From: Okamejei kenojei
Taxonomy: Eukaryota
NCBI GenBank assembly: GCA_035221665.1
Contig: CM069147.1
Span: forward strand, 14,508,001 to 14,572,000
DNA: 64,000 nucleotides
Direction of reading: 5' to 3'
In this document: positions 3,845 to 52,380 of the stretch, piece after piece
Layout: each line of letters opens with the position of its first letter
Numbering within the stretch: the stretch's first letter is position 1
Notes under the pieces: generated by a model
Database searches by the model: none
Told to the model about the DNA's origin: nothing
The model's input: only the letters and a program-made list of their open reading frames with translations
Position numbers and translations under genes: made by a program

Positions 3845-4010
3845 CACTGGTAACAGGGTATGTTTTGGGAGCATCCTACATAGATTTGTAATTCCATACA
3901 ATTACATGAATATTTACATACTGTATTAACAGAATAATTTATTTGCATCACACTCTATGAACCCATCACTAACGTTGGAATAAGGTAGAAACCAACAAAA
4001 TCGCAAACAA
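3845..4010 (+). repeat. Unclassified dispersed repeat, copy 1 (copy 2 at ~58778-58915)
   Basis: Shared blocks cactggtaac..g.tatgttttggga and catgaatatttacatactgtat. Confidence 0.6.
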
Positions 4011-4796
4011 GCAAGTGTAAAGTTTGAAGACATTGGAAAAACAGTTTCTTGTGGATGGGTGCTTGATAGTTGATAGTACAGGAAAAGTGGGCTTAGATGC
4101 CTATTTCTATGCTATAGGACTCCATGAGCCTTGGATAAAATAAAAGGAACAGATTCCAGGGGAACAGCATAACAGCATAAAGAGTATTCTACTGAGAAGG
4201 CCAGATAACCGAACGAATATAATCGCCTCAGTCTATCAATTTTTATTAGATGAGGTTCAATAGAAGGGGAGGAAAGGAGAAAATGGAAAGAAATATACAG
4301 TGATAATTGTGTATATCTTTTTAAAAAGTATATTTATTTCTGTTTGTCTCAAAAGAAGCTCACTGTTACTGGTGGCACCAAAGGCCACGGAATTGCCCAT
4401 TGACTCATTGACATTCGCTCTTAAATAGGTTAGTTCCTGCATATTTAAGTGCAACAAAATGTTTGCCTGCCATGATAGCACACTGTTTGGCCACTGAGTA
4501 GCACATGAATGATCATTTCAGATTCAGGACCAGGGTGAGATGGGGGGAGTGGGTGACACATGATGACCAGTAGTTGTGGAACTGAAGGAGACTGGGGGAG
4601 GGAACGACTAACTAGACACTGGTGCTTTGAGAGACTAGTTGGTCAGATCTATGAAAGTGCTGGGGCTTGTGTCATTCAGGGTGTGAAGGTCAGTGTCAGA
4701 GAAGTACCATGTGACTTGACTAAGTCAGTCCACTGGGATACCCAAATAATGATTGCTTTTGATTGCATATTTGAATGGCCCAGAGAAAAGTTTTGC

Positions 4797-5330
4797 TTTT
4801 AACAAGAGCGGAGAAATTTTGAAACACGACAAATACGTCCCAGCATGCCGTAGCCACACCCGACAGCGGGACTGGCTTGCCCACTGCGGAACCGGGAGCC
4901 CGGCCAATGTGGGAAGCTGCCGAGCCCGGCCCCTACTCACCCCGTGTAGAGAGTCAAGTCGGATGAGGACCCAGTAAGCACTCTGGCTGCTGGAGGCAGC
5001 GCAGAGACTTGCCGGTGGGGTGGACCGCTGGAGGCCCTGCAACAGCCTGGACCAGAATGGACTGTGGGCCAGATGTGGTCTGCAGCGGCACAGAATGGTG
5101 GAACAGTGGTGGAGGACTCCAACAGCTACGCTTGGCCAGGCTGGCCCTACGTTGTCCTCACCAGGAGAACAGGCCTTCATGGTCGTTTTAACAACTCTAC
5201 ACATATAACAACTGGGACTTGAATGCCAATTCTGGTGACTCTGTAAACTGTCTCAATGTACTACTACAATGCACATGTACTGTATCTGAGATGCTTATTC
5301 AGAATGTATATAAGCGCTTATGTATAGTGA
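4797..5330 (+). repeat. GC/CpG-rich unclassified repeat
   Basis: Abrupt GC-rich block in an AT-rich intron; no recognisable protein in the overlapping ORFs. Confidence 0.35.
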
Positions 5331-5819
5331 TAATTGTGCAGAATCCAAGTGGGTCCATTATCGCCCAGAGAGTGAGGAGTACCTGGAATGCATTGCCATG
5401 GAGATTGTTGACAGCAGTATTGCTAACATGCAAGTTGACCACTTGGTTCACCCTGACATTGAAGGCTCCAGGCCAAGTGCTGGTACATGGGATTGATACA
5501 GTTGTAATGCCCACTCAGAGTGGACCCGATGGGCCGAATGGCCTGCTTCCATGCTATATGACTCTATTTCCCATAATCATAATCAATTTTACAATATGAA
5601 AAGTTTCAAATATCTTTCCGAAATCATTGCAGAAAACATTTATCGCCTACTGACCCTGAGAGCAGCATTCCAATATTTGCACATATAAACCTGCTGTACA
5701 TGCAATTAAATGTTTTTATTCCATTTGAAACCGAATCAGAAATTAACCATTCAATTCCAAATTGAAGCCACAGATTATGAAAATCTTTGGAATGCAGCAG
5801 ATTCTATTTTCCTTTATTA

Positions 5820-6245
5820 CAGGTATATGGAGTTTAGGAGGATGAGGGGAGACCTCTTGAAACTTACTGAATAGTGAAAGGCCAGGGTAGAGTGATTGTA
5901 GAGAGGAGAGAGTGAATGTGGAGAGGATGTTTCCACTAGTGGGAGAGCCTAGGACCAGAGGCCATAACTTCAGAATAAATGTATGTACCTTTAGAATGGA
6001 GATGAGAAGGAATTTATCTAGTCAGATGGTGGTGAATCTGTGAAATTTGTTTCCACAGACAGCTGCGGATGCTAAGTCAATGGATGTTTTCCAAGGTGGA
6101 GATTGACAGATTCTTAATTAGTACGGGTGCCATGGGCTATGGGGAGTTGGCAAGAGAATGGGGTTGAGGAGGAAAGATAGATCAGCCATGATTGAATGGC
6201 GGAGTGCACTCGATGGGCTGAATGGCCTTGTTTTGCTCCTATATA
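5820..6245 (+). mobile_element. CR1/HER1 LINE 3' fragment, old
   Basis: Degenerate ORF2 end plus 3' UTR gatcagccatgattgaatggcgg; ends ~25 bp from the FH1 exon donor. Confidence 0.8.
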
Positions 6246-6270
6246 TGTGAATATATAATTCAGCCCTTAC

Positions 6271-7184
6271 CTTTGTAGGTAGTTCCTTGGCTTTAGATTC
6301 AAACAAGTGTTCCAATTTAGTGGTGTCCACAGTCACTTTATCCAAGGAAGCCCAGACTGTTCCACGGCCAAATTTACAGCTCCTGAAAGGGCCTTCTGGC
6401 TGCTTTAGTTCCTTCCAGAAGAGCTTAACGGTTTTTCTTTTATTTGCAAATGCAGAGACTGCTCCGTGCGGCGATGATAAATTAGATGATGGAGGTGGGG
6501 GAGGGAGAGGGGGGCTTGGAATTTGTCCAAAGGATGGTGGCGGAGGGGGAGGGGGAGGTGGAGGTGGACACCCGGGAGGTGGTGGAGGAGGAGGAGGAGG
6601 AGGAGGAGGAGGTGGTACATGTGGAACCATCGAACTACTCGGTAATGGAGCAGTTTGTTTATTGGCCGCACCAGGGTCTGCATCCAGAACATCTGTGTCC
6701 TCCTCATCTCGGAGATCTGTGAAGTCCAAGTCTTTGATCTTCAGCTCTCTGGGACTTGCTTCAAGTTGATCCCACATGTATTCAGAGTCTTTCTTCAATG
6801 GCATAATTATGGGAGACTTCTCCCCATTCTTCTCATTCAGTTCGGCATCAATGCTAAACTGTTCCTTCAAAACCTTGATCTGAGGTTCAGCAAATTTCTC
6901 CACCGTGGCTTTTACATTCCCAGGGATGCTTTCAATTGCAGGTTTCTTTGGGCTTTCCACATTCTGATGGATGTCCTGCCAGGAAAAGCCTTTGATCAAA
7001 TTCTCCGCGGATTCCGCCAGAGTCTCCTCTGAGAGTTTTTTCTCGCTCGCAGTAGGGACCTCTTCCTGGGTTACTTGCAGGCTGCTGGGCTCGGATTTTG
7101 CATACAACATGTCCAGCATGAATTTTTTGTCATTGGAGAGAGCACTGCACTGATCCAAACTGGACTGACGGATGAGACACGGTC
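6271..7184 (-). CDS. FHOD1: FHOD large exon: [16 protein letters not shown], polyproline FH1, start of FH2 ([13 protein letters not shown]...[15 protein letters not shown])
   Basis: 914 nt, phase 1-0, inside ORF 6118..7194; tandem acceptor cagcag (7187 or 7184); donor AAG|gtaagg. Confidence 0.95.
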
Positions 7185-7924
7185 CTGCTGCCAAACAAAA
7201 GAAAGCATTGTAATGGCCCTTTGATGTTCAAAAGCAAGTAAAGAGGTTACACAGCTTTTCAACCTAAGATTCAAACCCAAAACAAACAAATTCAGGATCA
7301 CAGTAAATCAATAACATTTGCTTACTTCTGTGGTGGCCAATATTGGAACAAACTTCCGAATTTCCACAAGCTACCATTTTGAAGTCAGGGAAGAAAAATA
7401 ATACTACTCTTCTGAACAGCAAAAGTAAAGTGGAAGTGTTGCTGCAAGTCCCACTGTGGGCTCTGAGTGGAGTGCACAAAGTGAGGAGAAACTAAACAGA
7501 GTGAAACATTTGTTTTGCACCGAGCAAGAACGTGACCATCTGATCTAAACAATTCACATACTTTTTTAACATAAACTTCAAATTACAAGTAATTTACTTT
7601 TCCCTGAGCTAGGGAGTAGCAACTAAGTGTATTGCCTGGCAAATATCCAAGAGCTTTCTTGATCATATCAAAAACCTCTGGTACTATTAAAAAGCAACAA
7701 GTCTCCTGAACTAATTAAGAAAATAAAGCAATGGTGGGTATAGTGAAGGGGTGCAAAATCATCACCTGAAGTTATTGATGAGATTGAGCTTTACAGAAGT
7801 AGCTTTTTTTCACTATTTATGGAGGAATGTCTATCCTCGCAGTTTGCAAGACCGTTAGTAGCAGATGTTCCTACAGTACGCTCATGGGGAATGAACGGAT
7901 ACTGAAAGATGCAATCTTTCTTGC

Positions 7925-8068
7925 CTGTCTCGTTATCGCCCGCCTGTCTGTCTTCTCTCTCTTCCCTCTCCAACGTACTGCTGGTGGAAGAGCTGCTGGA
8001 GGCTGAACATGGCTCTCTTTCATTTAACGCTTCATTCTGTTGTTCCTTTTCACTTAGCACCTCAACTG
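7925..8068 (-). CDS. FHOD1: FHOD exon (VEVLSEKEQQNEALNEREPCSASSSSSTSSTLEREEREDRQAGDNET)
   Basis: 144 nt, phase 1-1; resembles the FHOD3 segment LSEKERQNEGVNERDNCSASSVSSSSSTLEREE; acceptor ttctttccagcag; GC donor AG|gcaag. Confidence 0.88.
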
Positions 8069-8429
8069 CTGGAAAGAAGAATGATATGGTTTACTGAACC
8101 TCTGTGTAGCTCTGTGTATTTTCAGGATCAGTCATCCTCTCAGTTAACAGTGTGGAAAAAACCCCTCGGTTGTCATCAACACATCGTGATATGTCCCAAT
8201 ATTCCGTTCGCTCAGAAGCAACAACTCAGAATTTATTCATCGAACAAACTACTAAAATAACAGCTGATTAGGCCGGCATAAATGTCCATAGTTGGTACTG
8301 AGTCACACTAATCAACTTGTTTCTTAGGAGTGACTATTGGTCTTGGCATTTAGCTACACTTAACTATGATAACAGTTTGGGTACGAGAGTTTACCTTCAG
8401 ACAGCCAGTGGAGTACCAGAAAAATAAAC

Positions 8430-8785
8430 AATCTGCAAATGCTGGAAATCTGAAATAATAACCAAAAATGCTGGAAACATTCAGCAGGTCAGGCAGCATT
8501 TGCGAAAACAGTTAATGATTTAGGTCTGAGACTCTTCATCAGAACTGGGAACGGGAGAAAACAAATAATTTTTGATCAAAACACAAAGTGCTGGAGGGAC
8601 TCAGCGTGACAAGCAGCTCTGTGGAGGGAATGGAAATGGTGACATTTGGGGCCGGGACCCGGGTTGGCAGAAGGGCCACAACAGGAAACATCGTCAATCC
8701 ATTTTCTCCGCAGATGCAGCTTGACCTACTGAGTTCCTCCAGTACTTTATAGTTTGCTCAAGTATCCGCAAGTCTTTGTTTCACC
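8430..8785. mobile_element. Two degenerate hammerhead-type short repeats, one palindromic
   Basis: ctgcaaatgctgg...ttcatcaga, and acacaaagtgctggagggactcagc...gagttcctccagtactt. Confidence 0.6.
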
Positions 8786-8993
8786 AAATCATTTTTAATA
8801 ACAGACTAAGTGGGAGAAGGTTAGGAAGAAGAAGGGGAGCATTTCCAATTGAGTTAAACAAAGTGAGTTAACGTGGCTGGTAAAGCATATTATGTTTCTT
8901 TGCCTGTGTTATGTATTGCTAACAGCAAGGCTGTGGGATATGCCCTGCAAGATAGGCCGTACAAAAAATCCCGAGCCATATCAGAGTAAGTTA

Positions 8994-9302
8994 GGGCAGC
9001 ACCGTGGCGCAGCGGTAGTGTTGCTGCCTTACAGCACTGGCAGCACCGGAGAGCCGGGTTCGATCATGACTACTGGTGCTGTTTGTACTGAGTTTAGACG
9101 TTCTCCCCGTGGGTTCTCTCCGAGATCTTCAGTTACCTCCCACACTCCAAAGACGTACAGGTTTGTAGGTTAATTGACTTAGTATAAATGTAAATTGTCC
9201 CTAGACTGTGTAGGATTGTGCTAATGTGCGGAGATCCATGGTCGGTACGGACTCGGTGGGCTGAAGGGCCTGTTTCCGCGCTGTATCTCTAAACTAAAAC
9301 TA
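8994..9302 (+). mobile_element. HE1/V-SINE, near full length
   Basis: A-box tggcgcagcggt, B-box ggttcgatca, tail tctctaaactaaaactaa. Confidence 0.85.
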
Positions 9303-9373
9303 AGTGGGATGGGGTTTTAGGATAATCCAGTTGTTTGATGCTTGCTGTTATTGAGACCAGCTATTATCCTCAT

Positions 9374-9691
9374 AGCCCTGTCCCACTGTACGAGTTCATT
9401 CAAGTGCTTTCCCGAGTTAAAAAAAAAATCAAACTTGTGGTAAGCACGTGGAATGAACGTAGTGGGTACGTCGGAGCTCGGGGACGTCTCTTAGCAGCTC
9501 GTGTCGCTAACGGCAGGTACTCAGGAAGCGCGTTAAAGCTCTTGAAGACTCGTGAAGATTTTTCAACATGTTGCAAAATGTCCACGAGAGCCCCGTGCAT
9601 TTACGAGCGGCCATTCCCGTAAATCTCCGTGTTCGAATCAGGGCAAACTCGGGGAGAACTCTTGAATGAACTCATACAGTGGGACAGGGCT
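9374..9691. mobile_element. PIF/Harbinger-type MITE
   Basis: TIR agccctgtcccactgtacgagttcattcaag / cttgaatgaactcatacagtgggacagggct, followed by TTA. Confidence 0.8.
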
Positions 9692-10833
9692 TTAACTCCA
9701 TTTTCCTTTTAATCATACAAATTTAAATTCCTCAGCTGACACAGTGGGATGTGAAGCGTCGAGACCCATCTTCAGACAAAGGTCTGAAGAAGTCAAGGGT
9801 CTGAAGGGTCACGAGGAAGAGACAGATCCTCACAGTAAATGCCAACGTTCTGCGCTGTTAGTCAAAAGTGCAGTATATTTTTCTTAAAATGTCAATTTGA
9901 TCTTGCAGAGAAAAAAATCTTTACAAAGTTCCGATATGTTATTTTTCAAACGATCTCCGGCAAAATTTGTTGTCATGTTAACAGTAAGAGGCAATTAGGC
10001 ATTCTTGAAGATCATCATAACTGGTATGTCATCCCTGTGTGACCCCTTAAACTTCCCCTTCAATGTTGTATATACAGTACTGACAAATATACAACCGTAC
10101 AGTAGCTTCAGTACTGTTTGTGGGTGAGGGAGGGAGTACGGTATGAATGCCTAGAAACATAACCACAGAATGCTTTTATTTACCCCAGTGTTACACAATT
10201 AAAATAGTTCCCCCTCCCTCTCCCCCTCCAAAACTGAAGTGCCATAGCGACTGTTTCCAATTTGCTCTGAGTCATCCTGATGATGGACACTCATGACCAT
10301 GACATGCAAGAAATCAGTAGGAAGGAACTGCAGACGCTAGTTTACACTGAAGATAGACACAAAATGTTCATAAGTGATAGGAGTAGAATTAGGCCATTGT
10401 CTACTCTGCCATTCAATCAAGAGTAACTCAGCGCAGACCTCCCAACATTTGATTGTCAAAATTCATAATATTTCCCCTCAAAATTCATATTTTTAAATGA
10501 AAATTCATAATATGTCGCGGCGCCCTATTCGGGGTCCCATGTCACAAATTCTAAATTGTGAAGAAGTATTTTAAATGCCAAAATGTGAAAAAGGTACATG
10601 TATGCTGAAACATTTATAATTCTTTGTTAAACTTTGATAAACTTGGCACTAGACTCACCTTAATTTCTCTCACTTGGGGTTGTTGCCGGCGGCTATGCGC
10701 CTGCGCACTGGTGCAGATCAGCGGGCTGCCGGCGGGCGGGTGCGGCACATGCGCACTTGGCCAGGTTGCCGGCGGGTCTGCGCCTGCGCACTGGGTGGGG
10801 GTGGGGGGGGGGAGGCCCGGTGATGGGGCTTTA

Positions 10834-11042
10834 AAGAAGGAACTGCAGATGCTGGAGAATCTACACAAAAAGCTGGAGAAACTCAGCGGGTCAGCAGCAT
10901 CTAAGGAGCGAAGGAGATAGGCGACGTTTCGGGTCGAGACCCTTCTTCTAGCTGAAGAAGGGTCTCGACCCGAAACGTCGCCTATCTCCTTCGCTCCTTA
11001 GATGCTGCTGCACCCGCTGAGTTTCTCCAGCTTTTTGTGTAC
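10834..11042. ncRNA. Palindromic repeat with a minimal hammerhead-ribozyme core (putative), intact on + at 10952-10979
   Basis: CTGAAGA-A-GGGTC.TC.GACCC-GAAA-CGTC inside a near-perfect ~90-bp-arm inverted repeat. Confidence 0.6.
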
Positions 11043-11169
11043 CCCCGGTGATGGGGCTGCCGCGAGCGGCCGGCTGGCGGCCGGCTGGCGGCAAGAAAGT
11101 GCCGCTGATCGCGCGGGCCGGCGCCGCCCGGGCTCTGGGCCGGGCGTGGCGTGGCTCGAAATGGCGCCA

Positions 11170-11343
11170 GGCCCGGCAACCCTCCCCCACTGCGCACGCG
11201 CGGCCACTGGGGCCCGGCAACCCTCCCCCACTGCGCACGCGCGTCCACTGGGGCCCGGCAACCCTCACCCACTGCGCACGCGCGGCCACTGGGGCCCGGC
11301 AACCCTCCCCCACTGCGCACGCGCGGCCACTAGGGCCCGGCAA
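11170..11343 (+). repeat. 40-bp GC-rich minisatellite, ~4.3 copies, inside the DNA transposon
   Basis: Unit ggcccggcaaccctcccccactgcgcacgcgcggccactg. Confidence 0.9.
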
Positions 11344-11658
11344 AGTGCCGCTGATCGCGCGGGCCGGCAAACCGGGGACACATGGCGCCGGCGTTCACCA
11401 CGGGAGGAAGAATTTAGCGGGATAATTAGGGTACAAATCGGGATGGCGGGAAGGGAACCTAAAAAGCGGGAATATCCCGCCAAAAGCGGGATAGTTGGGA
11501 GGTCTGTCAGCGGGACAGGCAGCATCTCTGGAGCGAGACAATGGGTGATGTTTCGGGTCGAGACACTTCTTCATACTGAGAGTCAGGGGAGAGGGAAACT
11601 AGAGATATGGAAGAGTACAAAGACAATGTAGGGTGTGAAAATGACAGATCAAAGCAGA

Positions 11659-13113
11659 GGTAACCCCACTTTTTAAAAAGGGAGGGAGAGAGAAAACGGG
11701 GAATTACAGTCCAGTTAGTCAACATCGGTAGTGGGGAAACTGCTAGAGTCAATTATTAAAGATGGGATAGCAGCGCATTTGGAAAGTGGTGAAATCATTG
11801 GACAAAGTCAGCATGGATTTACGAAGGGTAAATCATGTCTGACGAATCTTATTGAATTTTTTGAGGATGTAACTAGTAGAGTAGATAAGGGAGAAGCAGT
11901 GGATATGTTGTATCTGGACTTTCAGAAGGCTTTCGACAAGGTCCCACACAAGAGATTGGTATACAAACTTAAAGCACACGGTATTGGTGGTTCAGTATTG
12001 ATGTGGATAGAGAACTGGCTGGCAGACAGGAAGCAAAGAGTAGGAGTGAACGGGTCCTTTTCAGGATGGCAGACAGTGACTAGTGGGGTGCCGCAAGGCT
12101 CAGTGCTGGGACCCCAGCTATTTACAATATACATTAATGATTTGGACGAGGGAATTAAATGCAACATCTCCAAGTTTGCGGATGACACGAAGCTGGGGGG
12201 CAGTGTTAGCTGTGAGGAGGATGCTAGGAGGCTGCAGGATGACTTGGATAGACTGGGTGAGTGGACAAATGCATGGCAGATGCAGTATAATGTGGATAAA
12301 TGTGAGGTTATCCACTTTGGTAGCAAAAACAGGAAGGTAGACTATTATTTGAATGGTGACCGATTAGGAAAAGGGGAGATGCAGCGAGACCTGGGTGTCA
12401 TGGTACACCAGTCATTGAAAGTAGGCATGCAGGTGCAGCAGGCTGTGAAGAAAGCGAATGGTATATTGGCATTCATAGCAAAAGGATTTGAGTACAAGAG
12501 CAGGGAGGTTCTACTGCAGTTGTACAGGGTCTTGGTGAGGCCACACCTGGAGTATTGCGTACAGTTTTGGTCTCCTAATCTGAGGAAAGACATTCTTGCC
12601 ATAGAGGGAGTACAGAGAAGGTTCACCAGACTGATTCCTGGGATGGCAGGACTTCCATATGAAGAAAGACTGGATAGACTCGGCTTGTACTCGCTGGAAT
12701 TTAGAAGATTGAGGGGTGATCTCATAGAGACTTACAAAATTCTTACGGGGTTGGATAGGCTAGATACAGGAAGATTGTTCCCGATGTTGGGGAAGTCCAG
12801 GACAAGGGGTCACAGTTTAAGGATAAGGGGGAAGTCTTTTAGGACCGAGATGAGAAAATCGTTTTTCACACAGAGAGTGGTGAATCTGTGGAATTCTCTG
12901 CCATAGAAGGTAGTTGAGGCCAGTTCGTTGGCCATATTTAAGAGGGAGTTGGATGTGGCCCTTGTGGCTGAAGGGATCAGGGGGTATGGAGAGAAGGCAG
13001 GTACAGGATACCGAGTTGGATGATCAGCCATGATCATATTGAATGGCGGTGCAGGCTCGAAGGGCCGAATGGCCTGCTCCTGCACCTAATTTCTATGTTT
13101 CTATGTTTCTATG
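11659..13113 (+). mobile_element. CR1/HER1 LINE, 5'-truncated, young (RT ORF 11731..12906)
   Basis: QHGF, YLDFQKAFDKV, GVPQGSVLGP and KFADD motifs; 3' tail (tttctatg)n. Confidence 0.95.
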
Positions 13114-13627
13114 ATCAAGGAAATGTAGAATTGTTCATTGTTGGCAGATGGGAAGGAAATCATGTCGTTCCCTCACTCCTTTGGAGCTTTTCAAGGTTGC
13201 ACTACATTGTTCCAGTAAGGACCATTGTTAGGCTCCTCCAGGACAATTAAATCTTCCCAGTTCAACGCCGGATCGATGCCCATGTCAGGTAAGGTCTCTA
13301 CTTAACTTTAATCATTTCTTGCATCTCCTGCCAACCTCCCCAGACCCACTCCAAAATGCTAAGGCCCCAGTCTTGTAATCCTCCTGACCCCCAGTCATGC
13401 ATATGCCTGATCCTGTGAACTCACACCTGGTAACTTCACAATACAAGTAGCTTCTGATGTCCCACCAGCCTGCAGATTACACCAGAATGTCAAAGTCATT
13501 AACATGCGTTTTTATTTTCTGATCTTACAATTGACGGTGTTATGTTGTATTTGTTTAATTATCTTGAATTTCAGAATACAGGTCAGTTGTTTCATCGGCG
13601 ATTACCGATTACACTCTGAATCACTTA

Positions 13628-13722
13628 TTCTGAAGAAGGGTTCCGATCTGAAACGCCACCTATTCTTTTTCTCTGGAGATGCTGCCTGACCTGTTGAGTT
13701 GCTCCGGAATTTTGTGTCTACC
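13628..13722 (+). mobile_element. Hammerhead-type short repeat, half copy
   Basis: ctgaagaagggttccgatctgaaacgccacc...gatgctgcctgacc. Confidence 0.7.
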
Positions 13723-14137
13723 AATTACACTCAGTGAGCTGAGCCCGTCTTTCTGAACGCATTCTCCAGAACGAGTTACATAATTTCCACGGTTAAAATT
13801 ACACATCAGTGTATCACTGAATAAAAGACACTCACAATGAAATTCCATTCACTCAGTTTCCATCAAATGCAATTTCAGGCATTACCTGTGCTATGTTGAC
13901 CACCTGATGCTAGTTCAGAGATGATGGACACTGTTAAGGATGCCCCCAATTCCTACTCCTCGTTGGCACCTTTCTCCAGTCTCATTGCTCGGTGCCATTT
14001 AATACATGGAAAAGACTATGGTCACTTGACAAGCTACGACCACTGTTTTGAGAGACACAGAGACCACAGACTTCGAGAATCACAGAAATTTACTGGGAGT
14101 CACTTGGCCATTATATCCCTTGGCCACCTAGGCCCCA

Positions 14138-14222
14138 ATCTGAAGAAGGGTCTCGACCTGAAACGTCACCTGTTCCTTTTCTCCAGCGATGCTGCCTGAC
14201 TTGCTGAGTTACTCCAGCTTTG
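14138..14222 (+). mobile_element. Hammerhead-type short repeat, half copy with intact core
   Basis: ctgaagaagggtctcgacctgaaacgtcacc...gagttactccagc. Confidence 0.75.
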
Positions 14223-14719
14223 ACATAGACTTGCTCAGACGCACACTCACTGCCTTGGACCATAATCGAGTGGGGGCTTCATCCACGGGCACATTCCAAC
14301 TCTTGTTCAGTTGTCTCCCGCTGCTTTTCGTTACGAGAGCAGTTGATATCCTGACAACAATGGGTGTAAAATATCTCTTATCTTCCTTGAATGTCTTTTC
14401 CCTGTGGCTTTTACCTCACCAGATGAACCCATTCACCAGAGGGGACAGTTTTTTTCTCAACTTTTGGTCCAGATGATAAAATCTGGAAAGCGCTGCCCGA
14501 TGAGCTGATGGTGACCGGGAATCCTCACAACATTTAAGAAATATTTAGATAAGCGCTTGAAACACCATGGCAGGAAAATACAAGCCAAGTGGCAGAAAAT
14601 GGGGTCAGTACAATTAGGCACTCACGGCCGTCCTGGACTTGGTGAAGCTGTATGGCTCTAATCCCTTGGAAGTGCTTTCATGTTTTTTGCAGATCCACAA
14701 CTGTAACTGTTATATGTGG

Positions 14720-14940
14720 CAACTGAACCATCCAACCAGAGCGTAGTCCTGAGCTACTAACTACCTCATTGGAGACCCTCAGACTATCTTTGATCGGACT
14801 TTACTGGACTTTATCTTGCACTAAACTTTATTCACATTTTTCCATTTATCATGTATCTGTACAGTGTGGGTGGCTCGATTGTAATTGTGCATTGCCTTTC
14901 GGCTGACTGCTTAGCATGCAACAAAAGCTTTTCACTGTGA
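14720..14940 (+). mobile_element. Rex1/L2-like LINE 3'-UTR remnant (related ends at ~1900, 36420, 41330, 55590, 57620, 61360)
   Basis: Shared end gcatgcaacaaaagcttttcactg...gtgacaataaa. Confidence 0.5.
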
Positions 14941-15444
14941 AATGGGAATGTTTTAGTTGTCAATTATATTAAATTCTGTACTGTAGTGTATAGTCAATGT
15001 TTGATATGCTGTGGGGCACAATGTGATTGGCCTCAGCACAACATTTGCCTGTATAATGCTGTATGCTGACTACCATCAGAGATGTTGCAAAAATGAAACT
15101 AAGCACCAAGCTATTCATCAGCAAACATCCCCATTTATGGTGTAATGATAGAAGGAAGATAATTTGTGAAAGAACTGCTGAAGACTGGGCTCAGAACAGA
15201 CATAAATGGCTGAAGGGCCTGTTCCTAAAATGAATCTTTCCTATGTTATTCAGTATATTATTCTTAGTGCCTTGAGGTCCATGTGTGTTTATTAATCACG
15301 TGTGCTACGTATCAAAGGCCTTCTGAAAGTGTAAACTTACATCCACCGATTCCCCTGAACTATTCTGCTGGTTACATCAAAAACACTTGACAGATGCGTT
15401 GAACATCATTCCCCTTTCATTCACCCAAACTGACAATGTCCGGT

Positions 15445-15540
15445 AGGACATAAAGTGCTGGAGTAACTCAACGGATCAGGCAGCATCTCTGGGAAACATG
15501 GACAGGTGATGTTTCGGGTCGGGACCCTTCTTCAGACCCG
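15445..15540 (-). mobile_element. Hammerhead-type short repeat, core in FHOD-sense orientation
   Basis: Minus strand reads gggtCTGAAGAagggtcccgacccGAAAcatcacct. Confidence 0.7.
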
Positions 15541-15609
15541 ACCACTTGACACTTCCCAGATATGTTATTATTTTCCGAATGTCCTATTCCCACTTCCTTA
15601 CAGATAATA

Positions 15610-16000
15610 GGTCCCCACATTGTGTATCATAGACGTGGCCCGGGACGGCCAATCAAGCGATGCTAAAGACGTTGATGTGTCAAAGTCAAAAGAGTTTATT
15701 GTCGTGTGTCCCTGACAGGACAATGACATTCTTTCTTTGCTTAGCACAACAGAACATAGTAGGCATTGACTACAAAACAGATCAGTGTGTCCATATACCA
15801 TTATATACGTAAATACGCACATGAATGAATAAATCGATAAAGTGCAAATGTTAGAGACAAAAGAGGAGCTTGCCAGCTGCATGGAGGACAGAGATGTGTG
15901 GTGCGTCCGTCACCATGCCCGTCGGAAACCAGCACCCCTGTGTCGCTAATTTTTCAATGATTTAATAAAATAATAAATAAAATAATAACAAATAATAACA
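15610..16000 (+). mobile_element. RTE/RTEX-like LINE 3' end interrupted by an antisense Rex1-like piece (~15690-15852)
   Basis: RRGPGRP and EELASCMEDRDVW peptides typical of RTE-type C-termini; (AAT)-rich tail. Confidence 0.45.
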
Positions 16001-16135
16001 TTTTCCATACTACTGATAGTTATAGCACTAGTGCTCAGTTAAAGCGTCTAATTCATGGTAACTTATGTCAGTTGACCACCATGGTATGTTACGTCAGTCG
16101 ATGATAACTAACGTCAACAGAAGTGGGCAACTTAC

Positions 16136-16239
16136 CATCAGAGGTTCTTTCCATGGATGTTGACATCACATGGTGTAAACATGATTTGTTCACATCCCTC
16201 TCTCTTTGCGTTGCGACGAGATTTTCTAAAAAGCGATTT
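16136..16239 (-). CDS. FHOD1: FHOD exon (NRFLENLVATQRERDVNKSCLHHVMSTSMERTSD)
   Basis: 104 nt, phase 2-1; acceptor ttctttcag, donor G|gtaagt; matches FHOD1 ARFLENVAAAETEK. Confidence 0.88.
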
Positions 16240-18374: not shown

Positions 18375-18932
18375 TGTGTAGGAAGGAACAGCAGATGCTG
18401 GTTTACACCGAAGATAAACACAAAATGCTGGAGTAACTCAGTGGGCCAGGTAGCATCACTAGAGAGAAGGAACGGGTGACTGGTCGCTTCTTCAGACTGA
18501 TAGTCAGGGGAGAGAGAGACTATAGATGTGGAAGAGTAAGGTGTGATCTCATTGAAACATATACGATTATTAAGGGTTTGGGCACGCTAGAGGCAGGAAA
18601 CATGTTTCCGATGTTGGGGGAGTTCAGAACTAGGGGCCACTGTTTAAGAATAAGGGGTAAGCCATTTAGAACGGAGATGAGGTAACACTTTTTCACACAG
18701 TGGGTTGTGAGTCCGTGGAATTCTCTGCCTCAGAGGGCGGTGGAGGCCAGTTCTCTGGAAACTTTCAAGAGAGAGCTAGATAGGGCGCTTGACGATAGCG
18801 GAGTCAGGGGATATGGGGAGAAGGCAGGAACGGGGTACTGATTGTGGATGATCAGCCCTGATCACATTGAATGGCAGTGCTGGCTTGAAGGGCCGTATGA
18901 CATACTCCTGCACCTATTATCTATTGTCTATT
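18375..18932 (+). mobile_element. Hammerhead-type repeat (18375-18540) followed by a CR1 3' fragment (18541-18932)
   Basis: DLIETY..IKG...RGH.LRIRGKPFRTEMR; tail tctattgtctattg. Confidence 0.8.
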
Positions 18933-22615: not shown

Positions 22616-23377
22616 TTTAAATGGTGGCCGATTAGGAAAAGGGAGATGCAGCGAGACCTGGGTGTCATGGTACACCAGTCATTGAAAGTAGGCATGCAGG
22701 TGCAGCAGGCAGTGAAAAAAGCGAATGGTATGTTAGCTTTCATAGCAAAAGGATTTGAGTACAGGAGCAGGGAGGTTCTACTTCAGTTGTACAGGGTCTT
22801 GGTGAGACCACACCTGGAGTATTGCGTGCAGTTTTGGTCTCCAAATCTGAGGAAGGACATTATTGCCATAGAGGGAGTGCAGAGAAGGTTCACCAGACTG
22901 ATTCCTGGGATGTCAGGACTGTCTTATGAAGAAAGACTGGATAGACTTGGTTTATACTCTCTGGAATTTAGGAGATTAAGAGGGGATCTTATAGAAACTT
23001 ACAAAATTCTTAAGGGGTTGGACAGGCTAGATGCAGGAAGATTGTTCCCGATGTTGGGGAAGTCCAGGACAAGGGGTCACAGCTTAAGGATAAGGGGGAA
23101 ATCCTTTAAGACCGAGATGAGAAAGACTTTCTTCACACAGAGAGTGGTGAGTCTCTGGAACTCTCTGCCACAGAGGGTAGTTGAGGCCAGTTCATTGGCT
23201 ATATTTAAGAGTGAGTTGGATGTGGCCCTTGTGGCTAAGGGGATCAGAGGGTATGGAGAGAAGGCAGGTACGGGATACTGAGTTGGATGATCAGCCATGA
23301 TCATATTGAATGGCGGTGCAGGCTCGAAGGGCTGAATGGCCTACTCCTGCACCTAATTTCTATGTTTCTATGTTTCT
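22616..23377 (+). mobile_element. CR1/HER1 LINE, 5'-truncated, very young, with TSD agaatttca
   Basis: ORF2 C-terminus; (tttctatg)n tail; agaatttca at 22607-22615 and 23378-23386. Confidence 0.95.
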
Positions 23378-23524
23378 AGAATTTCACAACTCAAACTGTA
23401 TATGAGCAGCCTGGTCATCAAACTGTAGAAGAAAGTCTACAGTCCGGAAAAGGAAAAGTAGCCAACCTCATCAAAAATAAGGCAGGTAAACTATTTTATT
23501 CATGTGAACAAGAAAAAAAAAGGA

Positions 23525-23828: not shown

Positions 23829-26809
23829 TCAGTATCCCGTACCTGCCTTCTCTCCATACCCTCTGATCCCCTTAGCCACAAGGGCCACATCCAACTCACT
23901 CTTAAATATAGCCAATGAACTGGCCTCAACTACCCTCTGTGGCAGAGAGTTCCAGAGACTCACCACTCTCTGTGTGAAGAAAGTCTTTCTCATCTCGGTC
24001 TTAAAGGATTTCCCCCTTATCCTTAAGCTGTGACCCCTTGTCCTGGACTTCCCCAACATCGGGAACAATCTTCCTGCATCTAGCCTGTCCAACCCTTAAG
24101 AATTTTGTAAGTTTCTATAAGATCCCCTCTTAATCTCCTAAATTCCAGAGAGTATAAACCGAGTCTATCCAGTCTTTCTTCATAAGACAGTCCTGACATC
24201 CCAGGAATCAGTCTGGTGAACCTTCTCTGCACTCCCTCTATGGCAATAATGTCCTTCCTCAGATTTGGAGACCAAAACTGCACGCAATACTCCAGGTGTG
24301 GTCTCACCAAGACCCTGTACAACTGAAGTAGAACCTCCCTGCTCCTGTACTCAAATCCTTTTGCTATGAAAGCTAACATACCATTCGCTTTTTTCACTGC
24401 CTGCTGCACCTGCATGCCTACTTTCAATGACTGGTGTACCATGACACCCAGGTCTCGCTGCATCTCCCCTTTTCCTAATCGGCCACCATTCAAATAATAG
24501 TCTGCTTTCCTGTTTTTGCCACCAAAGTGGATAACCTCACATTTATCCACATTATACTGCATCTGCCAAACATTTGCCCACTCACCCAGCCTATCCAAGT
24601 CACCTTGCAGTCTCCTAGCATCCTCCTCACAGCGAACACTGCCCCCCAGCTTAGTGTCATCCGCAAACTTGGAGATATTGCCTTCAATTCCCTCATCCAG
24701 ATCATTAATATATATTGTAAATAGCTGGGGTCCCAGCACTGAGCCCTGCGGTACCCCACTAGTTACTGCCTGCCATTGTGAAAAGGACCCGTTTACTCCT
24801 ACTCTTTGCTTCCTGTTTGCCAGCCAGTTCTCTATCCACATCAATACTGAACCCCTAATACCGTATGCTTTAAGTTTGTATACTAATCTCTTATGTGGGA
24901 CCTTGTCGAAAGCCTTCTGGAAGTCCAGATATACCACATCCACTGGTTCTCCCTTATCCACGCTACTAGTTACATCCTCGAAAAATTCCACAAGATTCGT
25001 CAGACATGATTTACCTTTCGTAAATCCATGCTGACTTTGTCCAATGATTTCACCACTTTCCAAATGTGCTGCTATCCCATCTTTAATAACTGACTCTAGC
25101 AGTTTCCCCACTACCGATGTTAGACTAACTGGTCTGTAATTCCCCGTTTTCTCTCTCCCTCCCTTCTTAAAAAGAGGGGTTACATTTGCTACCCGCCAAT
25201 CCTCAGGAACTACTCCAGAATCTAAAGAGTTTTGAAAGATTATCACTAATGCATCCACTATTTCCTGAGCTACTTCCTTAAGTACTCTGGGATGCAGCCT
25301 ATCTGGCCCTGGGGATTTATCGGCCTTTAATCTATTCAATTTACCCAACACCACTTCCCGACTGACCTGGATTTCACTCAATTCCTCCTTTGACCCACAG
25401 TCCCCTGCTATTTCAGGCAGATTATTTATGTCTTCCTTAGTGAAGACGGAACCAAAGTAGTTATTCAATTGGTCCGCCATATCCTTGTTCCCATGATCAA
25501 CTCACCTGTTTCTGACTGCAAGGGACCTACATTTGTTTTTAACTAACCTCTTTCTCTTCACATATCTATAAAAACTTTTGCAGTCAGTTTTTATGTTCCC
25601 TGCCAGTTTTCTTTCATAATCTATTTTTCCTTTCCTAATTAAGCCCTTTGTCCTCCTCTGCTGGTCTCTGAATTTCTCCCAGTCCTCTGGTATGCTGCTT
25701 TTTCTGGCTACTTTGTACGCATCATCCTTTGCTTTGATACTATCCCTGATTTCCCTTGTTATCCACGGATGCACTACCTTCCCCGATTTATTCTTTTGCC
25801 AAACTGGGATGAACAATTTTTGTAGTTCATCCATGCAGTCTTTAAATGTCTTCCATTGTATATCCACCGTCAACCCTTTTAGAATTAATTGCCAGTCAAT
25901 CTTGGCCAATTCACGTCTCATACCCTCAAAGTTACCTTTCTTTAAGTTCAGAACCATTGTTTCTGAATTAACAATGTCACTCTCCATCCTAATGAAGAAC
26001 TCAACCATATTATGGTCACTCTTGCCCAAGGGGGCACGTACAACAAGACGGCTAATTACCCCTTCCTCATTACTCAAAACCCAGTCTAAAATAGCCGGCT
26101 CTCTCGTTGGTTCCTGTACATGTTGATTTAGATAACTATCCCCGCATACATTCCAAAAAATCCTCTTCCTCAGCACCCCTGCCAATTTGATTAACCCAAT
26201 CTATATGTAGATTGAAGTCACCCATTATAACTGTTTTGCCTTTGTCGCACGCATTTCTAATTTCCTGTTTGATACCATCCCCAACTTCTCTGCTACTGTT
26301 AGGTGGCCTGTACACAACACACCCACCAGCGTTTTCTGCCCCTTAGTGTTTTGTAGCTCTACCCATACCGATTCCACATCCTCCAAGCTAATGTCCTTCC
26401 TTTCCATTGCTTTAATCTCCTCTCTAACCAGCAACGCTACCCCACCTCCTTTTCCTTTCTCTCTATCCCTCCTGAATATTGAATATCCCTGGATGTTCAG
26501 CTCCCAGCCTACGTCACCCTGGAGCCATGTCTCCGTGATCCCAACTATATCATAATCATTAATATCTATCTGCACGTTCAACTCGTCCACCTTATTACGA
26601 ATACTCCTTGCATTGAGACACAAAGCCTTCAGGCTTGTCTTTACAACGCATTTACCCCTTATACAATTTTGCTGAAAAGTGGCCCTTTTTGATTTTTGCC
26701 CTGGTTTTGTCTGCCTGCCACTTTTACCTTTCACCTTGCTACCTAATGCTTCTACCCTCATTTTACACCCTCCTGCCTCTCTGCTCTTGTACCCATCCCC
26801 CTGCCACAT
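23829..26809 (-). CDS. CR1 ORF2 (APE endonuclease plus RT), split by several frameshifts
   Basis: LNARSIRNK, GITETWL, SDHN, NYRPVSL, GVPQGSVLGP and FADD across ORFs 26225..26809, 25502..26185, 24080..25480 and 23829..24092. Confidence 0.9.
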
Positions 26810-26813
26810 TAGT

Positions 26814-27755
26814 TTAAATCCTCCCCGACAGCACTAGCAAACACTCCCCAAGAACATTGGTTCCATTCCATTCCAGGTGCAAACCGTCCTGTTTGTACCG
26901 GTCCCACCTCCCCCAGAACTGGTCCCAGTGCCCTAAAAATTTGAATCCCTCCTTCTTGCACCACTTTTCAAGCCACGTATTCATTTGCATTATCCTCCTA
27001 TTTCTACTCTGACTGGCCCGTGGTACTGGTAGTAATCCGGAGATTACTACCTTTGAGGTCCTACTTTTAAGTTTATCTCCTAGCTCCCTAAATTCACCTT
27101 GTAGGACCTCATCCCTTTTTTTACCTATATCGTTGGTGCCAACATGCACCACGACAACTGGCTGTTCACCCTCCCCCTCCAGAATGTTCTGCAGCCGTTC
27201 AGTGACATCCCTGACCTTTGCACCAGGGAGGCAACATACCATCCTGGAGTCTCGTTTGCGGCCGCAGAAACGCCTATCTATTCCCCTGACAATTGAATCC
27301 CCTATTACTATTGCCCTTCCCCTCTTTTTTCCCCCCTCATGTGCTGCAGAGCCACCCATGGTGCCATGAACCTGGCTGCTGCTGCATTCCCCTGATGAGC
27401 CATCTCCCTCAACAGTATCCAAAATGGTATACCTGTTTAGGAGGGAGATGACCGCAGGGGACTCCTGCACTACCTGCCTACTGCTTTGCTGGCTATTGGC
27501 CACCCGTTCCCTTCTTGTCCTCCTACCTTTTGCCTGCGGTGTGACCAACTCACTGTACGTGCTATCCACGACTTTCTCCGCATCGTGGATGCTCCAGTAT
27601 GAATCCAGCCGCAGTTCCAATCGTTCAATGCGATCTGCCAGGAGCTGCAGCTGGACACACTTCCTGCAAACGTAGTCACCAGGGACACCGACCATCTCCC
27701 TGATCTCCCACATGTTGCAGGCTGAACAAACCATGGGGCCAATCTCTACTGCCAT
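26814..27755 (-). CDS. CR1 ORF1 (N-terminal CxxC...CxxC zinc finger, coiled coil, SGNH/GDSL esterase domain)
   Basis: CSAC...CRKC; VIGDSIVRG; HVGTND; DGLHL. Confidence 0.92.
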   Translation of the reverse strand: MAVEIGPMVCSACNMWEIREMVGVPGDYVCRKCVQLQLLADRIERLELRLDSYWSIHDAEKVVDSTYSELVTPQAKGRRTRRERVANSQQSSRQVVQESPAVISLLNRYTILDTVEGDGSSGECSSSQVHGTMGGSAAHEGGKKRGRAIVIGDSIVRGIDRRFCGRKRDSRMVCCLPGAKVRDVTERLQNILEGEGEQPVVVVHVGTNDIGKKRDEVLQGEFRELGDKLKSRTSKVVISGLLPVPRASQSRNRRIMQMNTWLEKWCKKEGFKFLGHWDQFWGRWDRYKQDGLHLEWNGTNVLGECLLVLSGRI

Positions 27756-27998
27756 ACCTTACTCCCAAATTACTAAAAAAAAACACAAAAACTTATCCTT
27801 TAAACTTTACTACTAAATACTAAATCCCTAACTCCCAGAATCCCTCACTCCCAGAAGGCAGAAATGTAAAATAGTAAACCCGGGGTTGCACCCAATCAGC
27901 TGCTTCCTCGGGTCCTCTTCCACCAATCAGCGGCCTTCCTCAAAAAAAACCCAAAAAAAAACCCACTTCTCCAAATGGAACGTTATGGATTTGGGTAA

Positions 27999-32599: not shown

Positions 32600-34567
32600 A
32601 TTTAGTTTTTTAGTTTAGAGATATAAACTAAACATGAACCAGCAATCACACACTAGGGACAATTTTACATTGATACCAAGCCAATTAACCTACAAACCTG
32701 TACGTACATAAGGAAGACATAAATAATCTGCCGGAAATAGCAGGGGACCGCGGGTCAAAGGAGGAATTGAGTGAAATCCAGGTTAGTCGGGAAGTGGTGT
32801 TGGGTAAATTGAATAGATTAAAGGCCGATAAATCCCCAGGGCCAGATAGGCAGCATCCCAGAGTACTTAAGGAAGTAGCTCCGGAAATAGTGGATGCATT
32901 AGTGATAATCTTTCAAAACTCTTTAGATTCTGGAGTAGTTCCTGAGGTTTGGAGGGTAGCAAACGTAACCCCTCTTTTTAAGAAGGGAGGGAGAGAGAAA
33001 ACGGGGAATTACAGACCAGTTAGTCTAACATCGGTAGTAGGGAAACTGCTAGAGTCAGTTATTAAAGATGGGATAGCAGCACATTTGGAAAGTGGTGAAA
33101 TCATTGGACAAAGTCAGCATGGATTTACGAAAGGTAAATCATGTCTGACTAATTTTGTGGAATTTTTCGAGGATGTAACTAGTAGCGTGGATAGGGGAGA
33201 ACCAGTGGATGTGGTGTATCTGGATTTCCAGAAGGCTTTCGACAAGGTCCACCATAAGAGATTAGTATACAAACTTAAAGCATACGGTATTGGGGGTTCA
33301 GTATTGGTGTGGATAGAAAACTGGCTGGCAAACAGGAAGCAAAGAGTAGGAGTAAACGGGTCCTTTTCACAATGGCAGGCAGTGACTAGTGGGGTACCGC
33401 AAGGCTCAGTGCTGGGACCCAGCTATTTACAATATATATTAATGATCTGGATGAGGGAATTGAAGGCAATATCTCCAAGTTTGCGGATGACACTAAGCTG
33501 GGGGGCAGTGTTAGCTGTGAGGAGGATGCTAGGAGACTGCAAGGTGACTTGGATAGGCTGGGTGAGTGGGCAAGTGTTTGGCAGATGCAGTATAATGTGG
33601 ATAAATGTGAGGTTATCCACTTTGGTGGCAAAAACAGGAAAGCAGACTATTATCTAAATGGTGGCCGATTAGGAAAAGGGGAGATGCAGCGAGACCTGGG
33701 TGTCATGGTACACCAGTCATTGAAAGAAGGCATGCAGGTGCAGCAGGCAGTGAAGAAAGAGAATGGTATGTTAGCTTTCATAGCAAAAGGATTTGAGTAT
33801 AGGAGCAGGGAGGTTCTACTTCAGTTGTACAGGGTCTTGGTGAGACCGCACCTGGAGTATTGCGTACAGGTTTGGTCTCCAAATCTGAGGAAGGACATTA
33901 TTGCCATAGAGGGAGTGCAGAGAAGGTTCATCAGACTGATTCCTGGGATGTCAGGACTGTCTTATGAAGAAAGACTGGATAGACTCGGTTTATACTCTCA
34001 AGAATTTAGGAGATTGAGAGGGGATCTTATAGAAACTTACAAAATTCTTAAGGGGTTGGACAGGCTAGATGCAGGAAGATTGTTCCCGATGTTGGGGAAG
34101 TCCAGGACAAGGGGTCACAGCTTAAGGATAAGTGGGAAATCCTTTAAGACCAAGATGAAAAAGACTTTTTTCACACAGAGAGTGGTGAGTCTCTGGAACT
34201 CTCTGCCACAGAGGGTACTTGAGGCCAGTTCATTGGCTATATTTAATAGGGAGTTAGATGTGGCCCTTGTGGCTAAGGGGAGAAGGCAGGTACGGGATAC
34301 TGAGTTGGATGATCAGCCATGATCATATTGAATGGCGGTGCTGGCTCGAAGGGCCGAATGGCCTACTCCTGCACCTAATTTCTATGTTTCTATTTCTTTG
34401 GAGTGTGGGAGTTAACCGAAAATCTCGGAGAAAACCCACATGGTCACAGGGAAAATGTACAAACTCCGTACAGACAGCACACGTAGTTGGGATCGAACCA
34501 GGGTCTCTGCGCTGTAGGCTCTGTACGTCAACTCTAACAACTCTACTGCTGCGCCACCGTGCTGCCC
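32600..34567 (-). mobile_element. HE1/V-SINE split by a CR1 insertion (32600-32705 and ~34394-34567)
   Basis: acaaacctgtacgt | CR1 | ctttggagtgtggg rejoins the SINE consensus. Confidence 0.8.
32706..34393 (+). mobile_element. CR1/HER1 LINE, 5'-truncated (ORFs 32767..33657 and 33549..34322)
   Basis: RT motifs, one frameshift, small 3' deletion, tttctatg tail. Confidence 0.95.
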
Positions 34568-35199: not shown

Positions 35200-36360
35200 G
35201 GATATGGATGTCTTGCTTCCACTTTAATACTTTTGGTTCTGAGATGGCTGACGAGTCCTATATGTGGGATCTGCAGACTCTGCCACATTAGAGGGAGACG
35301 ATGTTCGATGGGGCAAGTGGGGCGTCATTAAGGATATTTTGCATTCCTTCCACAGTTTGCTCTCAATCTTTGTGTGTGCTTCCATCCTGGAGATTTAAAA
35401 TGCTCACTGCCCCTCCTGGATAATTCATCTCCATTTTGAGTAGCCACTGGCCATGGCTTCTCACAAGTAGGTGCAGAGGTCACATTTTTCAAGGAAACTA
35501 TTAAAGCCTCCTTGAAGTGTTTTCTCTGCCTTCCTGGTGGAGCCTAGAGTGGAGTGCTTGCTTCGGAAGTCTGGTGTCAGCATGCTGATGATATGGCCCA
35601 ACCTCTGTAGCTGTCTCTGCTGTTCGACCAAAGGTTGCGTTGATGTATTGAAGGCGCTGGTGAATGTCATCATCAACATCTGCCTTTGCTGAAAGGTGGT
35701 TCCTGAGATATCGGAAGTAGTCCAAGATTTCCAGTGTCTCAAATTTAATCTTCATTGTGAGGGAAGTGGGAGAAGGGAAGGTCGTATTGAGCAGCACAGA
35801 TTGGTAGAATACTTTTATTCCAGGTGTTTAACATATAGTTCATAAGGTTAGCACAATAGTGCAGTGGTAGAGTTGGCGCCTTTGACCAGGGTTTAATCCT
35901 GACTACGGGTGCTGTCTGTATGGAGTTTGTACGCTCTCCCCTATGACTGCATGGGTTTTATTCGGGTGATCCGGTTTCCTCCTGCACTCCAAAGACGTTT
36001 GGGTTTGTAGGTTAATTGGATTTGGTAAAAATTGCAAATTGGCCCTCACGTGTGTTGGACAGTGCTAGTGTATGGGGCTGATCGCTGGTCGGTGCGGACT
36101 CAGTGGGCTGAAGGGCCTGTTTCCATGCTGTATCTCTAAAGTCCATCCTCTCATGGGCTTCTGTGAAACAGTCAACAATGGCTTGGATTACAGCCTCCAA
36201 GCTTGTAGATGCCCAGTATCACATGAGATCTGCAGAACGTTTCTAGAATCAATGTTATTCTGGAAGTTACCAAATCATTCAGCCACTATCTCAGGCCCGG
36301 AAGTCCTGTACGTCAGTTGTCAAATGGCTTTTTATTTCCAATCTCCTGCTGGGCTGGATT
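35200..36360 (-). mobile_element. Old RTE-like LINE remnant interrupted by a + strand HE1 SINE (~35850-36140)
   Basis: FETLEILDYFRYLRNHLSAKADVDDDIHQRL resembles RTE RT (FxYLGS...DxDIxxR). Confidence 0.55.
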
Positions 36361-40260: not shown

Positions 40261-40294
40261 CTTGGACTAATTATACATTACTTGGACTAATTAC

Positions 40295-40520
40295 AGAGAC
40301 ACAAGAAACTACAGGTGCGGGAATCTTGAACAAAACACAAGGCGCTGGAGGAACTCAGTGAGTCCGATAAGCATCTGTCGAGGACATGGAGTTGCAACCT
40401 TTTAGATCGGGCCCTTCTTCACACTAATAAGGCAGAGGGTTGAAAGCTAGAAGGGAGAGATGGCGGCAGAACAAATCCTGGCAAATAATAGGTGGATACG
40501 GGTGAAGGGGGCTTGATTAT
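40295..40520 (-). mobile_element. Hammerhead-type repeat, degenerate
   Basis: cacaagaaactacaggtgcgggaatc...ggcccttcttcacact. Confidence 0.55.
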
Positions 40521-42848: not shown

Positions 42849-42945
42849 GGTACACAAAAATGCTGGAGAAACTCAGCGGGTGCAGCAGCATCTATGGAAC
42901 GAAGGAGATAGGCAACGTTTCAGGCCGAAACCTTTCATCAGACTC
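42849..42945 (-). ncRNA. Hammerhead-type repeat with intact minimal core in FHOD-sense orientation (putative)
   Basis: Minus strand agtCTGATGAaaggtttcggcctGAAAcgttgcc (42911-42944). Confidence 0.55.
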
Positions 42946-52111: not shown

Positions 52112-52380
52112 AAGACATAAAAAGCTGGAGTAACTCAGCAGGTCAGGCAGCATCACTGGAGAACATGGATATGTGACATTTCACAGAGTGCTGGAGTAAC
52201 ACAGCGGGTCAGGCAGCATCACTGGAGAACATGAATAGGCAGCAATTCAGGTTGGAACCCTTCTTCAGATGTCTGAAACCTGAATCATCACCTATCCATG
52301 TTCTCTGGTGATGCTGCCAAACTGGTTATGTTGCTCCATCACTTTCTGTCCTTTTTGGTAGACTAGCAGTCCCTTGTATC
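52112..52380. mobile_element. Palindromic hammerhead-type repeat with a duplicated left arm
   Basis: Two tandem gctggagtaac.cagc.ggtcaggcagcatcactggagaacatg, then ccttcttcaga and the inverted arm. Confidence 0.7.

Follow-up and report, generated by a model that had tools for sequence, protein, structure and literature searches.

What is the inverted repeat at 10834-11042 in a 64,000-nucleotide stretch of the Okamejei kenojei genome (contig CM069147.1; the whole stretch is called the window here), and does the hammerhead ribozyme that it carries take part in its formation? The original prediction read it as one of many two-polarity palindromes of a Penelope-derived, non-autonomous family, possibly processed by self-cleavage. 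We consider it probable that the locus is a young 213-bp double insertion of two copies joined 5'-to-5', in which the repeat is likely a Penelope-like 3' (pseudo-LTR) end copied from uncleaved RNA. Published systems are cited below as they are described in the portions of the papers that were covered.

Anatomy of the insertion

The features of the locus are the following.

8067-16136, minus: FHOD1 intron containing the locus, between exons 16244-16137 and 8066-7923 (tblastn with P0001)
10671-11400, no strand: GC-rich repeat with internal repeats that hosts the palindrome, approximate bounds
10816-10830, plus: left copy of the target-site duplication, an exact 15-mer repeated at 11044-11058
10831-10861, minus: 3' tail extension of about 30 bp, left arm only, matching the tails of other copies
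10862-10948, minus: left arm of the palindrome, pairing with 10954-11041 in the predicted hairpin
10923-10951, minus: damaged hammerhead copy with one extra A within the CUGA box, missed by the strict descriptor
10949-10953, no strand: palindrome centre, mostly CAG-T-CTG or CAG-A-CTG in other copies
10952-10979, plus: minimal type I hammerhead core, a strict descriptor match that fits the published consensus
10960-10963/10968-10971, plus: putative stem II of this copy, as read from the sequence
10954-11043, plus: right arm without tail (hairpin part 10954-11041)
11044-11058, plus: right copy of the target-site duplication, 15 bp

The insertion spans 10831-11043 (213 bp). The inverted arms of about 90 bp that had been described were confirmed at 10862-10948 and 10954-11041; they are joined 5'-to-5', are 98.9% identical over 88 nt and are predicted to form a hairpin of -192.6 kcal/mol (z -27.5). 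The one-sided tail (10831-10861) and the 15-bp target duplication are additional to that description. The tail matches those of other copies at 18382-18401, 55117-55137, 55248-55266, 10321-10338 and 53134-53146. We compared the locus with contigs from four runs (X1 and X8 from organism A, X10 from organism B and X14 from organism D), and in all four the contigs carry substitutions at 10949-10951 and a T or an A inserted behind 10951. Runs X17-X22, which shared few or no words, are left out of the comparison, and a run labelled as RNA was judged to be probably DNA.

The 15-mer is taken as a target duplication because X1 contigs cross the site with a single copy of it, joining 10799 or 10808 to 11044; these empty-site contigs may come from elsewhere in the host repeat family and not from an allele. 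Matches resembling such a duplication occurred by chance at 2 of 300 random positions, and only 3 of the 25 family loci have one, one of them weak. The host repeat (10671-10830 and 11044-11400) is GC- and CpG-rich with internal tandem units. Within 10700-11160 it is deeply covered in X1 and X8 and uncovered in X10 and X14, whereas the arms attract 49,663 contigs in organism A, 54,760 in B and 67,725 in D, contig depth being a crude measure that covers copies at least 85% alike and whose sum is not taken as copy number. As coverage of the host repeat is confined to organism A and that of the arms extends to all three organisms, the insertion appears young and the family older and shared. Seven FHOD1 exons were mapped between 796 and 51863 (minus); the exon at 6259-7188 is 88% identical to skate FHOD1 and 74-78% identical to ray proteins.

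The hammerhead motif at the locus

The motif first reported at 10952-10979 (+) is present in every part: the plus strand reads CUGAAGA, a bulged A, stem II, GAAA and the palindromic ACGU, with CGUC ending in the GUC triplet, and cleavage is predicted after 10979. Although the core is intact, stem I in register has 0 bp, because the palindrome centre has TAG in place of the AGT or AGA of other copies. From its letters, stem II would rather have 4 bp capped by a CUCG tetraloop; the alternative, 5 bp around a loop of 2 nt, is one that the folding program used does not permit. Stem II is predicted to pair with a probability of 0 when the whole insert is folded and of 0.04 when the right arm is folded alone; likewise, single units are not predicted to adopt the hammerhead fold (stem II pairing at most 0.04). 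An Rfam scan of the 64-kb window returned no hammerhead family up to E 5. The scan did match mir-9201 at 10904-10998 (39 bits against a gathering threshold of 95.5), which we rejected as accounted for by the hairpin.

Neither strand of the locus thus holds a complete ribozyme. The claim that both strands carry the motif fails here, since the core on the minus strand has an insertion and the plus-strand copy is without stem I, and the two polarities are best read as an inverted duplication, not as two working ribozymes. Moreover, the arms lie on opposite strands, so that one transcript holds one sense copy paired with its own antisense and cannot provide both of the ACGU words required for a dimer. 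Structure prediction buries the ribozyme of the locus in an 87-bp hairpin, where it is probably inactive.

A dense family with a minority of inverted pairs

A profile model of 90 positions detected 30 fragments of the repeat in the window, and a model extended by the tail detected 32 fragments at 25 loci (2,628 of 64,000 bp). This corresponds to about one locus per 2.6 kb, or about 4% of the window, with 14 fragments on the plus and 18 on the minus strand, mostly within FHOD1 introns. The earlier figure of about 20 copies was therefore right as to abundance but an undercount. All nine positions then quoted lie in family copies; those on the minus strand are not at C3, which is at 15535, 42941 and about 55223. 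If the window is typical, extrapolation would give 10^5 to 10^6 loci per genome. Head-to-head inverted pairs, said to make up many of the copies, are a minority: they occupy 7 of the 25 loci, a figure that includes the inverted tail piece at 55240-55266. Contigs of three organisms also contain many head-to-head joints of this kind. The copy at 55118-55266 is tailed at its 3' end and has this inverted tail piece at its 5' end, and so has tails on both sides. One of the 25 loci, 52112-52269, is a partial tandem.

A strict minimal-hammerhead descriptor gave four matches in the window (10952+, 14140+, 15535- and 42941-), whereas in 200 dinucleotide-shuffled sequences it matched 0.03 times on average and never more than once. 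Besides the flagged copy these are:

14140-14167, plus: second intact-core copy, stem I of 1 bp
15508-15535, minus: intact core with a 5-bp stem I and ACAU replacing the palindromic ACGU
42914-42941, minus: intact-core copy of another subfamily, with CUGAUGA, a different stem II, a UUCG loop, GUU and a stem I of 2 bp

The palindromic ACGU (15.2-16.2, for a dimeric stem III) is present in three of the four matches and in the alignment consensus, which keeps the full hammerhead core. Stem I measures 0 bp in the flagged match and 1, 5 and 2 bp in the others; across copies two of three tested pairs hold, the main subfamily having only 2 bp, and in an older copy (8462-8544) stem I has 5 bp and differs in sequence. 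Published metazoan Penelope-like element (PLE) rows have a stem I of 2 to 6 bp (PMC4209133, supplement). The original description holds for the very high copy number, the absence of coding and the Penelope-type minimal type I hammerhead, which fits the consensus published in that paper.

The inverted arms with a target duplication, together with the failure of single units to fold as a hammerhead in prediction (stem II pairing at most 0.04), could also be expected of a MITE-like DNA element or of a chance look-alike of the ribozyme. We give this very little credence: inverted pairs are absent from 18 of the 25 loci, the arms are 5'-truncated and of unequal length, target duplications measure 14-15 bp, the descriptor matches four times against 0.03 by chance, and the second subfamily retains the core with another stem II.

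Copy ends and cleavage

If self-cleavage processed the family, copy ends would be informative. The 5' edge of the ribozyme is kept in 18 of the 30 fragments; at most one begins 2 nt or less from the cleavage site, and none terminates at that site. The 3' ends are bimodal, falling at model positions 86-107 (15 of 32) and 122-125 (11 of 32), about 30 nt apart. The copies show no sign of shaping by cleavage: the proposed processing by self-cleavage finds no support in copies that retain an uncleaved 5' ribozyme and in ends that lie off the cleavage site. In anole Poseidon elements, the tail is defined by two internal start sites of reverse transcription and both target strands are primed, while ribozyme mutants still insert and RNA ends are not seen at the cleavage site (PMC11167929, portion covered). 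The two preferred 3' ends of the skate family agree with these internal starts.

A non-LTR retrozyme or two-polarity element, with RNA cut by hammerheads and circularised, would also place a type I hammerhead within a non-coding repeat, and retrozymes proposed to derive from pseudo-LTRs (pLTRs) have been reported in one chondrichthyan (10.64898/2026.07.22.740005, portion covered). The partial tandem at 52112-52269 and head-to-tail ribozyme joints in run X10 point the same way. Yet none of the 25 loci repeats complete ribozyme units in tandem, copy ends do not coincide with the cleavage site, and opposite-strand copies are unable to form the ACGU dimer within one transcript; in addition, retrozymes are mostly canonical type I in tandem units of 150-450 bp, whereas the skate motif is of the minimal PLE type (PMC7229834, portion covered). 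We regard this reading, which the original prediction had entertained, as quite improbable. The X10 joints (organism B), seen on 10700-11160, lead back from 10982 to 10952 across four intervening letters and have a period of 35 nt; these head-to-tail doublets may be candidate active dimers.

Selection on the ribozyme

Among the copies in the window, conservation of the core and covariation do not rise above background. In the 20 of 30 fragments that span the ribozyme, mean identity is 0.86 in core columns and 0.81 downstream (p 0.18), and 83 of 500 shuffles reach the covariation score of the 20 aligned copies; the core is intact in the consensus. G12 is changed to A in 8.6, 6.6, 5.9 and 7.0% of contig depth in X1, X8, X10 and X14, respectively, at or above the shares of non-core CpG guanines (2.3-3.9% at 10967, 0.6-6.6% at 10993). 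The catalytic G12 thus decays like other CpG sites in genomic copies.

Comparison of the copies at 10952 and 42941 gave a different picture: they differ at 6 of 28 ribozyme positions, none of which falls in the 11 invariant core or the 2 palindromic positions, and stem II still pairs. By a hypergeometric count this pattern has a chance of about 0.013, for one pair only. These alignments suggest that the ribozyme is under no selection among copies and probably under selection between subfamilies. With neither covariation nor core conservation at the level of copies, the case for ribozyme function comes from the consensus and this one subfamily pair. Between 10952-11041 and 42849-42944 the downstream part has about 3 differences in 60 nt and the ribozyme 6 in 28. 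The ribozyme module may possibly have been swapped between the subfamilies of the flagged copy and of 42857.

Proposed double priming and the origin of the palindrome

We infer Penelope membership from structure, not from protein: the type of ribozyme, the tail, the inverted arm and the target duplication are its four signatures. In the mechanism that we propose, a Penelope-type GIY-YIG/RT protein would nick the two target strands 15 bp apart, and two independent cDNAs would be primed, each from one of two internal RNA start sites, which would yield an arm with or without the tail. The cDNAs would run toward each other and be joined close to the ribozyme's 5' edge; there TCAG-T-CTGA, a natural short inverted word, would offer microhomology at the joint. 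The ribozyme would likely matter only in master elements, as a dimer or with help from protein.

The flagged palindrome is symmetric at its centre and does not discriminate this twin priming from a fold-back, in which one cDNA, halted near the 5' edge of the ribozyme, would pair with itself through TCAG-T-CTGA and copy its own strand. Unequal pairs with a single tail are more informative. In all three found (21332/21432, 43582/43650 and 52182/52277) the tailed arm is the shorter of the two at the centre, which argues for two primings since a fold-back copy cannot hold a tail that is absent from its template arm. The best-supported contig joints in three organisms link tail-only inverted pieces, also at odds with fold-back, to arms starting at 10952, an end partly dictated by the reference, which starts there. 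Symmetric CAG-T/A-CTG centres, common in all four runs, and the 98.9% identity of the flagged arms would suit a fold-back, and self-priming has been favoured for such junctions (PMC3846280, portion covered). We consider fold-back unlikely and twin priming the likely route, with the qualification that three pairs are few and that fold-back followed by later trimming of the tail would give the same picture.

As for a partner protein, no RT or GIY-YIG frame lies next to any of the family copies examined in the window, and translations upstream of the copies at 311, 11507, 34568, 40335 and 49504 contain nothing recognisable by eye. A 49-residue frame in an older copy (8353-8499, minus) found no relative in peptide searches, and so gives no sign that the unit encodes the start of an ORF. 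Motif scans of metagenome, viral and prokaryote collections, where skate DNA is not expected, were blank. The reverse transcriptases of the window were considered as the Penelope partner and rejected, as they are of the RVT_1 type and come from LINEs whose endonuclease is AP-type and whose first frame is esterase-type. The microsatellite 3' end of these LINEs is absent from the family copies. A young LINE at 24080-27758 (minus) combines RVT_1 and the AP-type endonuclease with a GDSL/SGNH esterase domain in its first frame, and belongs to a family which we take to be CR1/L2-like; LINE copies were also found at 11719-13110, 22637-23380, 32689-34390 and 37293-40270. Another short repeat family, D13 (1732-1792, 9233-9293, 36080-36140, 59191-59251 and others), resembles the LINE 3' end and, by this resemblance, is likely a SINE or a LINE tail.

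The five-prime edge and a possible self-contained unit

Out of the 30 fragments, 12 start within about 4 nt of C3 with unrelated sequence upstream, three share a longer 5' extension and three more have pyrimidine-rich upstream DNA. Two further features bear on this edge:

11576-11617, minus: pyrimidine-rich 5' extension common to 18497-18538 (88% identity over 42 nt)
13603-13732, plus: lone copy of the family (13629-13719), flanked by a 14-bp target duplication that has 1 mismatch

The extension common to 11576-11617 and 18497-18538 implies that some copies are longer than the short unit. Four different extensions (11576-11600, 18497-18520, 40424-40445 and 8544-8560, minus) end in a pyrimidine run and YAG before the ribozyme. 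The 5' edge could be a transcription start at an initiator-like word, a 3' splice site or an RT stop. The word at the edge, TCAGTC, presumably matches the initiator consensus. A 3' splice site at helix I is described for D. virilis Penelope (PMC4209133; PMC2377424), and in the portions of the Penelope-element literature compared we found no description of a preferred 5' edge.

It is a real possibility, though not the likelier one, that the repeat is a self-contained, SINE-like unit whose RNA starts at the initiator-like TCAGTC before the ribozyme, so that the short copies are full-length, and which is copied from internal start sites 90-125 nt downstream. This reading is compatible with the Penelope explanation and differs from it in the start of the template. 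The 12 fragments that start at the ribozyme edge, the discrete length classes and the single copy at 13629-13719 with its own 14-bp target duplication are consistent with it, as are the initiator-like words and internal promoters of Penelope pLTRs (PMC2377424; PMC3846280, portions covered). The three fragments with a common longer extension, the three others with pyrimidine-rich upstream DNA and the loose contig ends before 10952, part of which agree on a further extension, argue against it, and the boundary also resembles a 3' splice site (pyrimidines, then YAG) or an RT stop. A fuller version, that skates harbour a ribozyme-headed SINE of the Penelope world, a unit of 90-125 nt with its own start that inserts singly or as 5'-to-5' pairs by double target priming, is put forward only tentatively and strikes us as doubtful.

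Comparison with known systems

The closest published relatives of the motif are the PLE pseudo-LTR hammerheads (PMC4209133). These have in common with the skate motif CUGAnGA, one bulged base, G10.1-C11.1, GAAA, the palindromic 15.2-16.2, a short stem I, U-rich upstream sequence, mostly solo motifs and pairs on opposite strands. The published pairs are 100-700 bp apart, whereas the skate pairs abut directly. The 4,000-9,000 motifs counted in coelacanth and Xenopus are far below the skate extrapolation, most skate copies failing the strict descriptor, and no chondrichthyan was found in the portion of text or supplement covered.

Penelope insertions have inverted pLTRs, a 31-bp tail on one inverted pLTR, target duplications of 8-10 bp and head-to-head junctions (PMC3846280; PMC8557442). 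The skate family and these Penelope/Poseidon pLTRs share the head-to-head 5'-truncated copy, the tail of about 30 bp at one end, the enclosing target duplication and partial tandems. In contrast, the skate locus has no ORF between its repeats, its units measure 90-125 nt as against about 200, and its target duplications 14-15 bp as against 8-10. The anole element PAc (PMC11167929) likewise has two preferred 3' ends, about 100 nt downstream of its ribozyme, and its inserted copies keep the ribozyme uncleaved; its ORF, however, starts in the ribozyme, whereas no conserved frame was found in the skate family, and it prefers AT-rich sites, unlike the GC-rich target at the flagged locus. Non-LTR retrozymes (PMC7229834; 10.64898/2026.07.22.740005) are also non-coding repeats with a type I hammerhead and a proposed Penelope origin, but the skate window has no tandem arrays of complete units and its motif is minimal, not canonical.

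A search of the literature pairing Penelope with shark, elasmobranch or skate returned, by title and start of the abstract, no paper describing the family. As to ribozyme biology the family offers nothing new, for publications on other animals already describe the motif, pairs on opposite strands and the tail. The origin of the inverted ends of Penelope and the role of the hammerhead are, according to the portions of the papers covered, open questions (PMC8557442; PMC11167929). The skate family is so abundant and so short that its ends, tails and junctions, taken genome-wide, could decide between twin priming and fold-back, and the same counts in the skate genome could show whether cleavage ever shapes insertions. 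For the host, the family places long perfect hairpins in the introns of a gene, and the intronic palindromes of FHOD1 would give long double-stranded RNA in the pre-mRNA. If the repeat is indeed a SINE-like unit, its hundreds of thousands of copies would be a read-out of where Penelope cDNAs start, end and are joined.
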